Below are positions 2,534 to 15,308 of a DNA stretch of 64,000 nucleotides, piece by piece (position 1 is the first letter of the stretch; each line of letters starts with the position of its first letter). Source of the stretch: a virus (lineage: Duplodnaviria > Caudoviricetes); IMG/VR virus record IMGVR_UViG_2920693923_000001, positions 95,904 through 159,903 of that record; one strand, given 5' to 3'. The notes under the pieces are model-generated. The model did no database searches. It saw nothing but the letters and a program-made list of their open reading frames with translations, and was not told where the DNA came from. A program made the translations under genes and the position numbers.

Positions 2534-3991
2534 ATGATGGCAGTAGGAAAAATTAGAGAAGAAAATATTCCAGTAATCAATTACACAGAGGAAGTAAAAG
2601 AGGGTGATGTCAATGATAATCAGGACGTGCAGCGATACTTTTGTAGTGATGATCCATTTGTTAATGGAATTGGTGTTACTGTCTTAACAGGAGATTATCT
2701 TCCTCCATTGATTTTAGCAGAAGTTCCTATTAAAGATGGAATTGTTCAAAAATATATTGGTGACGGATTACAGCGCACCACTGCATTGATGCAGATTCGT
2801 TATGGAAATTACAAATTTACTAAAAACATTGAAGACAGCGAGATTGAGTATCAATCAAAAGTCTTCGATGAAAATGGCGTGGCAGTTAGAGACGAAGATG
2901 GGAATTTTGTATGGGAAAAGAAAATATTTGATATAAAAAATAAGACATATGATGATTTTCCAAAAGAACTAAAAAAGAGATTTGATAACTATCAGCTTCG
3001 GATTGTAACATATCAGAATTGTACTATGGAAAAGGTTAGTAAATTAGTTAGAAAACTAAATAACCACAAAGGAATGAATGCAAGTCAGAAAGCATTGACT
3101 TGGATTCCTACATATGCCAGACAAGCAAAAAGTATTGGAGAAGAAGGTTTCTTCAAAAATTCAATGACATACTCAGGTACAGATAGAAAAAATGGAAATT
3201 ATATTCAGCTGGTTTGCAATAGTGTAATGGCTCTTTTCCATATAGATGAATTTAAAAAAGATTCAAAATCGGCGAATGCTATGCTTGAAGAAAAAAGTAA
3301 TCATCAGGAATTTGAAACAGTAAGGAATATCCTTCAGAGAATGGAAAAATGTTGTAGATCATCTTGTAAAGATGTTTTTGTAAAGAAAGACATATCGACA
3401 TGGGTAGTTGTATTTGATAAGTTCAGCAGATTAAATCTTCCAGATGCTAAATTTGCTGAGTTTGTACAGGCGATTCCAACAAAATTACATAATGTCAAAG
3501 TAGGCGACTGGTCATACGATTTATTATATAAAGAACCAGGTACAACAGGTAAAAAACTTGTTGCTCAGAAAATTGATACATATACAGCATTAATGATGGA
3601 TTATTTACATATTACAGAAAATCAGACAGAGAATAATTCAATAGACAATGTTGAGTTGTCAGAAGAAATTACGCCATTGCAGTTCATTAGAGAGAATGTA
3701 TCAGAGAGAGTATCAGAAGATGATGTGGATGATTATTATACTTTAATGGATGACTTCAAAAATTTAGATGGAGTAAACAAAGAATCACCATTTTTTGACT
3801 ACCATAATGAATTGGCATTTTTAGGTATGATTGCATATTCATTTAAGAGTGACAAAGATCTGGATAATTGGTTAGTTACATATACTAACAAAGATATTTC
3901 TTATAGTAATGATCAGGTGGTAAATTTGGATAATATGTTGGCTGATTTTAAAGAATTTGATAAGAAATTAACTCAAAAATTATCAGCATAG
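2534..3991 (+). CDS. DUF262/ParB-like N-terminal domain protein
   Basis: QR...LPPLIL...IGDGLQR motif and a later KLNN, as in the DUF262/ParB-like fold. Confidence 0.6.
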   Translation: MMAVGKIREENIPVINYTEEVKEGDVNDNQDVQRYFCSDDPFVNGIGVTVLTGDYLPPLILAEVPIKDGIVQKYIGDGLQRTTALMQIRYGNYKFTKNIEDSEIEYQSKVFDENGVAVRDEDGNFVWEKKIFDIKNKTYDDFPKELKKRFDNYQLRIVTYQNCTMEKVSKLVRKLNNHKGMNASQKALTWIPTYARQAKSIGEEGFFKNSMTYSGTDRKNGNYIQLVCNSVMALFHIDEFKKDSKSANAMLEEKSNHQEFETVRNILQRMEKCCRSSCKDVFVKKDISTWVVVFDKFSRLNLPDAKFAEFVQAIPTKLHNVKVGDWSYDLLYKEPGTTGKKLVAQKIDTYTALMMDYLHITENQTENNSIDNVELSEEITPLQFIRENVSERVSEDDVDDYYTLMDDFKNLDGVNKESPFFDYHNELAFLGMIAYSFKSDKDLDNWLVTYTNKDISYSNDQVVNLDNMLADFKEFDKKLTQKLSA

Positions 3992-4004
3992 AAATGGAGA
4001 ATAC

Positions 4005-4493
4005 ATGAAAGTACAAACAGAACATAGTGGTACGATAACATTTCGCCCGGAGTATTGTTATATGAACCGAAAATTGCTTATACAGATGATCAATCATAAT
4101 AATAAGAAATCATTGGAAAGGGATAAGAATATGAATAAAAGGCAGCGTAAGAAATGGTTAAAGAAACATGGTGAATATGTTAATCCGAAGGAAACTTGGG
4201 ATTTGAGCTATACCATTGCAAAGTTTATCATTCCGAGATTAAAATATTTCAAAGAAGAATCATGTTGTTATCCTGGAACTGGTGATATGAATACACCTGA
4301 GAAATGGGATGCTGCCCTCGATAAAATGATTCATGCATTTGAACTAACACTGATGACCGATGATTATTATGGTGTTTGGGACATAAATACGCAACCATAT
4401 AAAGAAGTTAAGCACTTAATCGATCAGAAGCAAGCAGAAGTTGATGAAGGTTTGCAATTGTTTGGCAAATGGTTTCAAGCATTGTGGTGGTGA
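4005..4493 (+). CDS. Hypothetical phage protein (alternative start at 4130, MNKRQRKK)
   Basis: ORF with RBS; ends in GLQLFGKWFQALWW. Confidence 0.65.
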   Translation: MKVQTEHSGTITFRPEYCYMNRKLLIQMINHNNKKSLERDKNMNKRQRKKWLKKHGEYVNPKETWDLSYTIAKFIIPRLKYFKEESCCYPGTGDMNTPEKWDAALDKMIHAFELTLMTDDYYGVWDINTQPYKEVKHLIDQKQAEVDEGLQLFGKWFQALWW

Positions 4494-4643
4494 TATTAAC
4501 AGGGATTATACATATCATTACCTCACCTCTTATATCTAATACATATGCCAAATCTGGCAATTCTTTGTGTATGATTCCTGTTTAATATATATGAATAAGA
4601 GAGAATAAGTAAGTAGATGACTTGACTAAAGTTGTCTGCCTAA

Positions 4644-12768: not shown

Positions 12769-13058
12769 AATTAACAATTGATATTCCAAAAGGATATGAA
12801 AGAGATTTTATAGCTGATAAGTTTAAAGATTTCTTTTCAAGAGTAATTACAGATATAGACTATAGCGATCTGTGTGGTAATTATGAAAAAGAAATTGCAG
12901 AAATGTTTTTAGAAGCATTTGACAAAGCTATTATTGGTGATACTAATCTAAATGCTAATGTTATTCCAGTTGAAAATATATCTTTTGACAAAGAAGATAT
13001 GAAGAAGATGATTCAAGACGAATTAAAGAAGTTCCAAGTAGAGAATAATCTAATATAG
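12765..13058 (+). CDS. Hypothetical phage protein
   Basis: GTGA overlap with the upstream gene; GAGGTG RBS. Confidence 0.7.
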   Translation: MKLTIDIPKGYERDFIADKFKDFFSRVITDIDYSDLCGNYEKEIAEMFLEAFDKAIIGDTNLNANVIPVENISFDKEDMKKMIQDELKKFQVENNLI

Positions 13059-13244
13059 AAGTAATTCTATTCACGGCTGATCAGCCAAATTTCCCCAAAA
13101 AGTAACAAGAAATATTTTTTTCATTCGATTAGGCAAACGTGCCTATTTTCGGGTGATTTTACAACAAAATAATATTAAAAAGAAAGGATTTAACAGTAAA
13201 TTCTAGGTAATTATGGTTACGTAACCTCTGTAGATTAAAGGATT

Positions 13245-14681
13245 TTGACAGAGAATAAAGAAAAAAATAATTATTATGAGAAGAACTGGAAGTTAGTAAA
13301 CTTCTGTGAGTTCGATAAATATGCAACACGTTCTTATTGTGCTATTCACAATGAGAATGAAAGTAAAAATCTTGGCGATATTACTAAAGTTGATGAGACA
13401 AAACTTGAACCATTTAATATGATTTGTGGAGGGTCACCCTGCCAAGATTTTTCGGTCGCTGGTAAGCAGAAAGGTTCTATGTGGACTTGTAAAGATTGTG
13501 GACATGAGTATAATCCACTGACAGTTCATTGGTCAGAAAGAGATAAATGTCCATGCTGCGGAAGTAATAATATTGAGAAGACTCGATCTTCTTTACTTGT
13601 AGAATATCTGAGAGTTATCAGAGCAAATAAACCAAATTTCGGTATGTATGAGAATGTAAAGAATATTGTAGGGAAACAGTTCAAAGATACATTCAAAATG
13701 TTTACAGATGAGTTGGACGAGTATGGTTACAATGTGTACTGGAAAGTTCTCAACGCAAAAGACTATGGTATTCCACAGAATCGAGAGCGTGTGTATCTGA
13801 TTTTTATTAAAAAAGAATTGGATAACGGTAAGTTTACATATCCTGAACCATTTGATAATGGAATGAGATTAAAAGATATTCTTGAAGAGAATGTTGATGA
13901 AAAATTCTATATTTCAGAAGATAAAGTGCAGAAAATTCTCAATAGTAATTTTATGCAAGAAAAATTAAGAATTCAGGATGTGAATTCATCTTGCAGTTGT
14001 TTGCTTGCGAGAGATTACAAAGATCCAAAATGTGTACCAATGAATAATTCAGATACAAATCATCCTATGAGGATTGGTAATATTTATGGAGAACAATTTG
14101 GTACTGGATATGCGGGCAACGTATGGGATGAAAACGGTGTATCACCAACTCTAATGACTTGTACAGATGGCGGTAGACAACCGCATATTACAGAAATAAT
14201 GAATAATAAAGTGGCAATTAAACAAGCTACGAAGAAAGGTTACATTGAATGTGAGGTAGGTGGTGTAGCAGATTTATCATATCCTGAATCTAAGACTAGA
14301 AGAGGAAGAGTTCAAGAAGATGGTAATATTTGTCCAACGATTACTGCAACAGAGACAGGTGTTTGCAGGATTGAATCACCTATTCGTGTCAGAAAGCTTA
14401 CTCCGAAGGAATGTTTCAGACTTATGGGACTCTCAGATGAAAATTTTGATGCTGCTGAAAAGATGGTTAGTAATAGTCAGTTGTACAAGCAAGCAGGTAA
14501 TTCCATCGTAGTAGATGTTTTGTATTACATATTAGTTGAGTTATATAAGGTTATGCCATATTTATTTGATGATTTAAAACTAAGTAGTTTCTTCTCAGGA
14601 ATTGGTGCTTTTGAGATTGCATTGAATAGATTATATGAGAGCATTAATACTGGAAATTTTCGTCAGCCACAAGTGGATTAA
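13245..14681 (+). CDS. DNA (cytosine-5) methyltransferase, circularly permuted, with Zn-ribbon insertion
   Basis: Motifs II (CEFD), III (GDI), IV (GSPCQDFS), VI (ENV), VIII (QNRERV), IX, X (QAGNS), then motif I (FFSGIGAFE) at the C-terminus. Confidence 0.9.
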   Translation: MTENKEKNNYYEKNWKLVNFCEFDKYATRSYCAIHNENESKNLGDITKVDETKLEPFNMICGGSPCQDFSVAGKQKGSMWTCKDCGHEYNPLTVHWSERDKCPCCGSNNIEKTRSSLLVEYLRVIRANKPNFGMYENVKNIVGKQFKDTFKMFTDELDEYGYNVYWKVLNAKDYGIPQNRERVYLIFIKKELDNGKFTYPEPFDNGMRLKDILEENVDEKFYISEDKVQKILNSNFMQEKLRIQDVNSSCSCLLARDYKDPKCVPMNNSDTNHPMRIGNIYGEQFGTGYAGNVWDENGVSPTLMTCTDGGRQPHITEIMNNKVAIKQATKKGYIECEVGGVADLSYPESKTRRGRVQEDGNICPTITATETGVCRIESPIRVRKLTPKECFRLMGLSDENFDAAEKMVSNSQLYKQAGNSIVVDVLYYILVELYKVMPYLFDDLKLSSFFSGIGAFEIALNRLYESINTGNFRQPQVD

Positions 14682-14950
14682 GTTCTGCTTGTGGTGATTT
14701 AGATAAGAAAATTTATGTATATGATGACTATAATAGCAGGTTTATAAAAGATTAAGAACGAATGGGAACTATCACAACAAACATCGGAGCAAGTGCATTA
14801 CGAAATGGAATAAAACTTATTGAAATATCAAATGTTTGTATTGATGATACACAAGGTTTTGATGGAGTAAGATTTTATAATGGCTACACGCCAACTTTAA
14901 GAAGCCAACGAAGCGGATTAAAAGTTTTTGAAGATACAAGTAGAGAATAA
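14654..14950 (+). pseudogene. -1 frame extension of the methyltransferase (variable-region-like modules), interrupted by TAA at 14753
   Basis: A_AAT_TTT slippery heptamer plus 11-bp hairpin; -1 frame reads ...IYVYDDYNSRFIKD*ERMGTITT...YTPTLRSQ. Confidence 0.6.
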
Positions 14951-14973
14951 TACAATAAGTAGTTGAAAAAACA

Positions 14974-15021
14974 AAACAATATATAGTGTGGAAATATTGT
15001 AATACATCCTATATATTGCAT
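14974..15021. promoter_or_regulatory. Tandem NrdR-box-like pair
   Basis: AAACAATATATAGTGT and ATCCTATATATTGCAT, starts 32 bp apart. Confidence 0.65.
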
Positions 15022-15074
15022 AAAAATTAAGACCGATTGAAAGCGGAACTTCTTTTTTAACGAAAGGAGAGAAT

Positions 15075-15308
15075 ATGGAAGGAATAACTAGGAATATAAA
15101 AGACGAAAAACAGTCTATCCGTAATGAACTTATTCAGAGAATTAAATATTGTGGACAATATATAGTAGACAACGCTGAAATAATCCTTGGAGAAGATAAA
15201 TATCTTGCCGATTTATATTTGACATGTAACTTTTTTGATAGAAGTGAAGCTCCATATGTAACTGTCAATAAAGATATAATCCCAGATGGTTTTATTGAAG
15301 AAAGATAA
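15075..15308 (+). CDS. Hypothetical phage protein
   Basis: AAAGGAG RBS. Confidence 0.7.
   Translation: MEGITRNIKDEKQSIRNELIQRIKYCGQYIVDNAEIILGEDKYLADLYLTCNFFDRSEAPYVTVNKDIIPDGFIEER

Follow-up and report, generated by a model that had tools for sequence, protein, structure and literature searches.

The 3′ end of a cytosine C5 DNA methyltransferase (MTase) gene from a phage very probably carries a programmed −1 ribosomal frameshift cassette. In the window, the whole stretch of 64,000 nucleotides that was analysed, the last codons of the gene contain a slippery heptamer followed by a hairpin. Comparison with about a hundred related loci of gut phages suggests that these elements would give a fraction of the ribosomes access to a reading frame that lacks its own start and encodes additional target recognition domain (TRD) modules.

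The MTase gene and the motif closest to the junction are located as follows.

13245–14681, plus strand: ORF of the C5 cytosine DNA methyltransferase, 0-frame short isoform of 478 aa (ORF list; Pfam).
14589–14612, plus strand: motif I (FxGxG, SAM-binding loop), at the C-terminal end of the MTase ORF (translation).

The ORF begins with a TTG codon and, in a Pfam search, residues 107–433 of its product matched PF00145 with an E value of 8.2e-61. The C5-MTase motifs PCQ (IV), ENV (VI), QxRxR (VIII), IX, X and FxGxG (I) are all visible in the translation, which is circularly permuted, with motif II at the beginning and motif I at the end. The complete order is motif II, PCQ, a zinc-ribbon insert, ENV, QxRxR, the variable region, IX, X and motif I. 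Motif I is separated from the heptamer by 14 codons and is conserved across all relatives, and in the AF2 model of one of them (P0180, 112-row alignment) the equivalent strand is placed within a core of pLDDT >90. More than 100 homologues with 69–95% identity were present among the matches listed. Those that were read share the same stop position, and the variable region is a mosaic among them, with repeated units of the Pro-Thr-Leu/Ile type. No cultured-phage relative was found among GenBank phages, where the only matches were short ones to the MTase. The record that contains the window is a provirus of 159.9 kb.

The elements of the predicted signal follow motif I in close succession.

14654–14660, plus strand: slippery heptamer A_AAT_TTT, in register with the 0 frame (codons GGA AAT TTT).
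14661–14666, plus strand: spacer of 6 nt between heptamer and hairpin (length constant and sequence varying in 36 aligned junctions).
14667–14694, plus strand: predicted stimulatory hairpin with an 11-bp stem and a 6-nt loop (folding, covariation).
14679–14681, plus strand: 0-frame stop codon TAA, within the hairpin loop (sequence; every hairpin variant keeps the stop in its loop).

The heptamer in frame, the spacer, the hairpin and the 0-frame stop are each found where the first-pass annotation had placed them, and the signal of the window copy is intact. The arms of the hairpin (14667–14677 and 14684–14694, with two G-U among the 11 pairs) enclose the loop at 14678–14683. RNA folding gave a free energy of −20.4 kcal/mol (z = −5.1), and none of 200 shuffled sequences was as stable. 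The hairpin is not terminator-like, an Rfam search of positions 12900–15200 returned no match and no upstream Shine-Dalgarno-like stimulator was seen near the heptamer. The sequence A_AAU_UUU belongs to the H_HH.U_UU.Y class, one that Sharma et al. (PMC4066793) rank with the most efficient −1 heptamers of E. coli.

Conservation of the signal was analysed in 8 loci retrieved by identity look-up and 80 from IMG/VR, all of them on gut-phage contigs, mostly of 80–160 kb, which together provided 76 distinct junction regions. The full signal was defined as an in-register heptamer, a hairpin that encloses the stop with a free energy of −8 kcal/mol or lower, and at least 45 open codons in the −1 frame. 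All three features were present in 58 of the 76 distinct loci, far more often than chance would produce. Loci without an extension have either lost the hairpin by deletion or acquired a different C-terminus. Intermediate situations also occur: one locus (L052) still has the hairpin and an open frame although its heptamer is disrupted (AAACTTT), and two others (L047, L057) have a −1 extension without the canonical heptamer.

Codon usage at the heptamer is almost fixed. Among 46 distinct C-terminal regions, the first codon is GGA in 43/43, the second AAT in 45/46 and the third TTT in 46/46, and the three variants that replace the glycine use GAA or AGA (Gly-to-Glu or Gly-to-Arg), keeping the A with which the heptamer begins. 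Synonymous codons alternate at most invariant columns of the preceding 100 codons, with AAT/AAC ratios of 21/25, 31/15 and 18/28 for Asn and TTT/TTC ratios of 19/27 and 16/30 for Phe, two other Phe columns being mostly TTT (42/4 and 43/3) and the Gly columns showing mixed GGN codons. Judged by these counts, the heptamer is selected as nucleotides, beyond what the protein requires. The hairpin is conserved in a different manner, through its pairing. Over 36 distinct junctions, 97.2% of the cells in the alignment are paired, against 37–49% in slid controls. Changes on both sides of the pair affect 5 of the 11 pairs (16 cells), and the covariation score of 0.266 (0.186 in shuffles) was not reached by any of 500 shuffles. 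Further, a C-G to G-C swap occurs in L094 at a pair that is invariant in the main set, three loci (L032, L037, L040) have at this position a hairpin whose sequence is unrelated and whose loop likewise encloses the stop, and two more (L038, L039) carry another variant. The signal that the first-pass annotation had recognised in the window is therefore kept among homologues, as a heptamer with frozen synonymous sites and as a hairpin with compensatory double changes.

The reading frame behind the signal is open far beyond what is usual for these genes. The median open run of the −1 frame, counted from the heptamer, is 76 codons, and 59 of 65 loci have 53 codons or more; elsewhere within these genes, runs in the −1 frame have a median of 4 codons, a 99th percentile of 25 and a maximum of 39. 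The longest extension has 222 codons. Upstream, the −1 frame closes 0–8 codons before the heptamer in the 65 loci, and in three of them (L058, L069, L085) a TGA abuts it. An important conclusion of this arrangement is that entry into the frame must take place within a stretch of eight codons that runs from the heptamer to the 0-frame stop. In 57 of the 65 loci, no start codon (ATG, GTG or TTG) exists between the upstream −1 stop and 60 nt past the heptamer. A start of its own for the downstream frame, which the first-pass annotation had set against its frameshift proposal, is thus absent near the junction in these loci. Gene callers leave the extensions uncalled or call orphan ORFs of 40–140 aa.

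The sequence 3′ of the hairpin is non-homologous between lineages. The −1 frame contains modules of at least eight different kinds, each with the Thr-Leu/Ile/Val core that is typical of C5-MTase TRDs. Summed pairwise pN/pS values for six module groups were 0.18, 0.20, 0.51, 0.16, 0.22 and 0.28, and on this measure the modules are under purifying selection in the −1 frame. The assignment as TRDs is most direct for the module designated B2, which is the internal TRD located just before motif IX in two C5-MTases of canonical motif order (P0152, from the Bacillus cereus group, and P0157) and is also found in the variable region of two others (P0161, P0129). These matches show, at the level of sequence, that B2 is a TRD. 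Module E aligns weakly (E = 0.02) to residues 237–270 of M.HhaI, its recognition region, and its eleven best PDB matches are all M.HhaI; module A had no PDB sequence match. When the extension modules were compared by local BLAST with the internal variable regions of the same gene family, mostly no match was found, which suggests that they are not simple copies of the internal TRDs.

Nature also provides enzymes in which a module of this kind is joined to the MTase without any change of frame. In L066 and P0121, an extension of the type seen in the window is fused in frame through a deletion inside the hairpin, and in L033 the fusion has arisen through a changed C-run. Two permuted MTases (P0180, P0225) have no TRD between motifs VIII and IX, and their sole TRD-like module is fused after motif I. 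AF2 modelling was uninformative about how such modules dock: the C-terminal module of P0180 had a pLDDT <50, and the in-frame fusion L066 (34-row alignment) was modelled with a pLDDT of only 33.9.

The extension in the window is interrupted by a nonsense codon.

14654–14755, plus strand: −1 extension, part one, 33 codons comprising the linker and the first half of the TRD-like module B1 (ends at TAA).
14753–14755, plus strand: private nonsense codon TAA, CAA (Gln) in relatives (module B alignment, 10 loci).
14756–14950, plus strand: remainder of the −1 extension, with the second half of B1 and the whole TRD module B2 (same −1 frame).

In the window, the −1 frame is closed by a stop two codons ahead of the heptamer and lacks a start codon. 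It was read in the first-pass annotation as TRD-like coding sequence interrupted by the TAA at 14753, and this reading holds. After that codon the frame runs for 64 further codons to the TAA at 14948–14950, and an ORF of 62 codons can be called from the ATG at 14762, 6 nt past the TAA, with no clear Shine-Dalgarno sequence upstream. Position 14753 has a sense codon, CAA (Gln), in all the relatives compared, namely the other nine loci of the module B alignment as well as L089/L090, which share 95% MTase identity with the window; the in-frame fusion L066 likewise has Gln at the equivalent position. Module B has a pN/pS of 0.18 over the 10 loci. Because of this private change from CAA to TAA, the product of a shift in the window would gain 33 codons and no intact TRD. 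The proposal of two isoforms with two specificities must consequently be divided: it should hold in the relatives, where the frame is open, and it probably fails in the window copy, which, with its −1 frame cut at 14753, may make no functional long form. The 62-codon ORF would be either a fresh relic or the low-level product of reinitiation at ATG 14762.

A different explanation for the downstream modules is that they are separate small genes, translated by internal initiation or by termination-reinitiation to give free specificity subunits, with the heptamer and hairpin serving some other purpose such as mRNA stability or translational coupling. Some loci do have the appropriate structure. 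In L063, the ORF of a module termed D has its own ATG and a good Shine-Dalgarno sequence (GGAGGA), in L094 a module ORF has an ATG that overlaps the end of the preceding extension, and a 62-aa ORF starting with ATG is called in the window and in L089/L090. The first two cases suggest that some modules may be free polypeptides. As a general account, however, this is very unlikely. In the 57 start-less loci the frame nevertheless continues through the hairpin without a stop and under constraint, module B1 encloses the ATG at 14762, which is not preceded by a Shine-Dalgarno sequence, the natural in-frame fusions link the extension covalently to the MTase, and both loci with free ORFs also have frameshift-linked modules upstream.

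Slightly less probable still is a translational bypass of the type known from T4 gene 60, in which the ribosome would hop over the 3′ arm of the hairpin to a matching codon beyond it. In the window, a hop from GAT 14676 to GAT 14696, across a gap of 17 nt, would also lead into the −1 frame, and in all hairpin variants the stop in the loop comes directly after the candidate take-off codon. A codon for the same amino acid is found within about 8 codons in 27 of 36 junctions, the codon being identical in 19 of the 36, but in this sequence Asp and Glu codons occur often by chance alone, the matching codon is absent from the remaining 9 junctions and its position elsewhere varies from 0 to 7 codons. 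A hop would, moreover, leave unexplained why the synonymous sites of a heptamer 25 nt upstream are frozen and why the −1 frame opens right at the heptamer, as is evident in the three loci with the abutting TGA.

The arrangement extends beyond the permuted enzymes. Among representatives at 50% identity, a second MTase family with canonical motif order was found, whose members end with motif X, a conserved tail and then the same Asn-Phe-x-x-Pro-Gln signature. In the DNA of L093–L095, the heptamer is again separated by 6 nt from a hairpin whose loop holds TAA, and the −1 frames contain TRD modules. A scan of IMG/VR with the pattern alone retrieved 104 stretches. In 77 of the 81 matches that were read, the pattern comes directly after a C5-MTase element, motif I in 44 cases and the motif X tail in 33; the remaining 4 are second cassettes or cut contexts, also in MTase or TRD sequence. 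In L138, which is on the contig of L069, and in L107, two cassettes are chained, so that a second heptamer and hairpin close the first extension and lead to a further module. Modules have been shuffled among loci and between the two MTase families.

Such shuffling, together with the nonsense codon of the window copy, could suggest that the TRD-like sequence is untranslated, consisting of silent cassettes that recombine into the MTase variable region or of relics from an ancestral tandem MTase, with the hairpin as a site of recombination or transcript processing; this is the least probable of the three alternatives, since five of the six module groups have a pN/pS of 0.16–0.28, the frames stay open for 53–222 codons in an AT-rich genome where the −1 median elsewhere is 4, the extension modules are mostly unlike the internal TRDs of the same genes and the open frame always begins at the heptamer. 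Three further candidates were rejected: transcriptional slippage because the A3T4 run is too short, sequencing error because the arrangement recurs in dozens of independent assemblies, and an intron or intein because Rfam gave no match and inteins in relatives are located in the PCQ motif instead.

Programmed −1 frameshifting would operate at these loci as follows. Most ribosomes would decode GGA AAT TTT and six more codons and stop at the TAA in the loop, releasing the 478-aa enzyme. The hairpin, located 6 nt downstream, would make ribosomes pause with tRNA-Asn and tRNA-Phe on AAU UUU, and in a fraction of them the tRNAs would re-pair one base back on AAA UUU, thereby entering the start-less frame. 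In relatives, this frame would supply one to about five TRD modules behind a short linker. A shift into the module frame would allow one gene to yield both a short enzyme and a long enzyme with further TRD modules, and the two loci with chained cassettes would produce three nested products. What the analysis shows is the signal with its conservation, the constraint on the −1 frame as coding sequence and the TRD identity of module B2; the shift of ribosomes at the heptamer, its rate and the new specificities of the long form are inferred. The added modules most likely add methylation specificities, which would protect the phage DNA from more of the restriction systems of its hosts.

A broader interpretation can be put forward more tentatively, and it is somewhat less probable than an even chance. 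The heptamer and hairpin might constitute a portable and chainable socket for TRDs that recombines between unrelated C5-MTase families, generating from one gene a graded series of nested enzymes in which the efficiency of frameshifting sets the range of targets and the TRDs are loosely tethered or even free instead of being integral to the fold. In the permuted family the socket follows motif I, and in the canonical family it follows motif X. The idea of loosely held or free TRDs draws on P0180 and P0225, in which the only TRD comes after motif I, and on the stand-alone ORFs of L063 and L094. If this interpretation is true, C5-MTases would have something like a detachable specificity subunit.

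Several known systems resemble the proposed cassette in part. The dnaX gene of E. coli (tau/gamma) likewise combines an in-register heptamer of the form X_XXY_YYZ with a stable hairpin a few nucleotides further on (PMC5009743), and it makes two products from one gene, in a set ratio, as is proposed for the MTase gene. The heptamer of dnaX is A_AAA_AAG and that of the MTase A_AAU_UUU. In contrast to dnaX, where the shifted product meets a stop at once and is the shorter one, the shifted product of the MTase would be longer and gain whole domains. In the tail-assembly chaperone G/GT of phage lambda and in OrfAB of the mobile elements IS3/IS911, a −1 shift near the 3′ end appends a functional domain encoded in an overlapping start-less frame (PMC5009743; PMC4066793). 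Unlike these, the MTase cassette would serve the recognition of DNA targets, and the appended part is swappable, with at least eight kinds per socket, and chainable. The resemblance to T4 gene 60 lies in the stop within a hairpin right after the last 0-frame sense codon and in the resumption of decoding downstream; the difference is that matched take-off and landing codons are not conserved at the MTase loci, which have instead a conserved slippery heptamer upstream.

With regard to the enzymes themselves, the multispecific phage MTases, and an enzyme described as having TRDs 'at separated locations', are known cases in which one core is equipped with several TRDs. The multispecific enzymes would share with those described here a single core with several TRDs of ~40–70 residues and a Thr-Leu/Ile/Val core, the phage setting and a likely role in protection against several host restriction systems. 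They encode all their TRDs in one frame, whereas here some are located behind a recoding signal, and the TRDs of the extensions lie outside the variable region that separates motif VIII from motif IX, after motif I or X. Phase-variable hsdS genes of Type I systems and mod genes of Type III systems also vary MTase specificity from one locus (PMC7383803; bioRxiv 10.1101/2020.06.18.137471). They do so at the DNA level, by slippage in repeat tracts or by recombination, and create states that differ within a population. Contrary to this, the MTase cassette would act at translation, with the forms present together in each cell.

It is rare for a programmed frameshift to add a new folded domain. Among 18,672 sites predicted to be of high efficiency in Gammaproteobacteria in a 2025 survey, only five were domain-adding (bioRxiv 10.1101/2025.10.02.679949). 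No frameshift in a DNA methyltransferase was found in that study, in a review of recoding (PMC5009743) or in full-text literature searches. If the proposed mechanism is true, C5-MTase TRDs work outside the classic variable region, which would bear on how alternative TRDs dock in multispecific enzymes and on the engineering of targeted methyltransferases. For the biology of these phages, the finding would mean that gut phages of ~150 kb use swappable recognition modules to broaden and adjust, during translation, the methylation with which they counter restriction.

The C5 cytosine DNA methyltransferase encoded in the window (13245-14681) is circularly permuted, with motifs running in the order II-X and then I, so that motif I comes last. 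This topology is common to many methyltransferase clusters at 50% identity or less. The natural permuted C5-methyltransferases recorded in a 2018 survey of REBASE are broken solely in the variable region (IX-X-I...VIII), and permutants engineered to open near motifs I-III showed activity (PMC5944983). In the relative P0180, the core is predicted by AF2 to fold at pLDDT above 90, including the strand of the C-terminal motif I.

The catalytic region of the enzyme carries an insert of its own.

Window 13485-13565 (residues about 81-107): zinc-ribbon-like insert (CxxC...CxxC), just past the catalytic PCQ motif.

This insert matches Zn_ribbon_8 and HypA of Pfam weakly, both under the cut-off, and it is kept in relatives. 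Some relatives (P0006, P0166 and P0186) contain an intein inside the catalytic Pro-Cys-Gln motif, following the Cys; that of P0006 has matches to Pfam Hint/Intein_splicing.

Two stretches of DNA flank the gene and its −1 frame extension, which consists of modules resembling target-recognition domains (TRDs).

Window 13059-13244: non-coding sequence of about 190 nt, upstream of the methyltransferase.
Window 14960-15060: AT-rich intergenic element, directly 3′ of the extension ORF.

A gap of similar size lies 5′ of the methyltransferase in all fetched loci. The start context in the window is unusually tight, as the reading frame is open for just two codons ahead of the TTG start and AAAGGA lies 2 nt 5′ of it. 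In the alignment, the AT-rich element is kept across loci that are otherwise divergent. In one relative, a gene for an IS605 OrfB/Cas12f-like TnpB (L003:6355-7584) has been inserted 3′ of the extension.

The junction takes a different form in one clade of related loci.

L047:3973-4160, L057:4021-4210 and L033:3881-4120: members of the C-run clade.

These loci are without the canonical heptamer, and a run of C precedes a weaker hairpin. The module lies in the −1 frame in L047 and L057 and in frame in L033; the homopolymer could be phase-variable, or the shift could take place at another site.

TRD-like modules are also encoded on their own, in both cases directly 3′ of a frameshift-linked extension.

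L063:about 4290-4510: ORF of ~70 codons with only a TRD-like module, type D.
L094:about 3925-4125: ORF of ~70 codons with only a TRD-like module, type D.

The ORF in L063 is equipped with GGAGGA and an ATG, and in L094 the ATG and the end of the frame before it overlap. Both may be free specificity polypeptides.

Another arrangement was found in two permuted methyltransferases.

L097:1501-2652: P0180, permuted methyltransferase, 383 aa.
L098:324-1478: P0225, permuted methyltransferase, 384 aa.

In both proteins the interval between motifs VIII and IX is without a TRD, and the sole TRD-like module is joined in frame after motif I. Four C5-methyltransferase genes stand in tandem in L097. Because the contig from which P0225 derives has a GC content of 65%, the layout with a single module after motif I extends beyond the AT-rich phage group.
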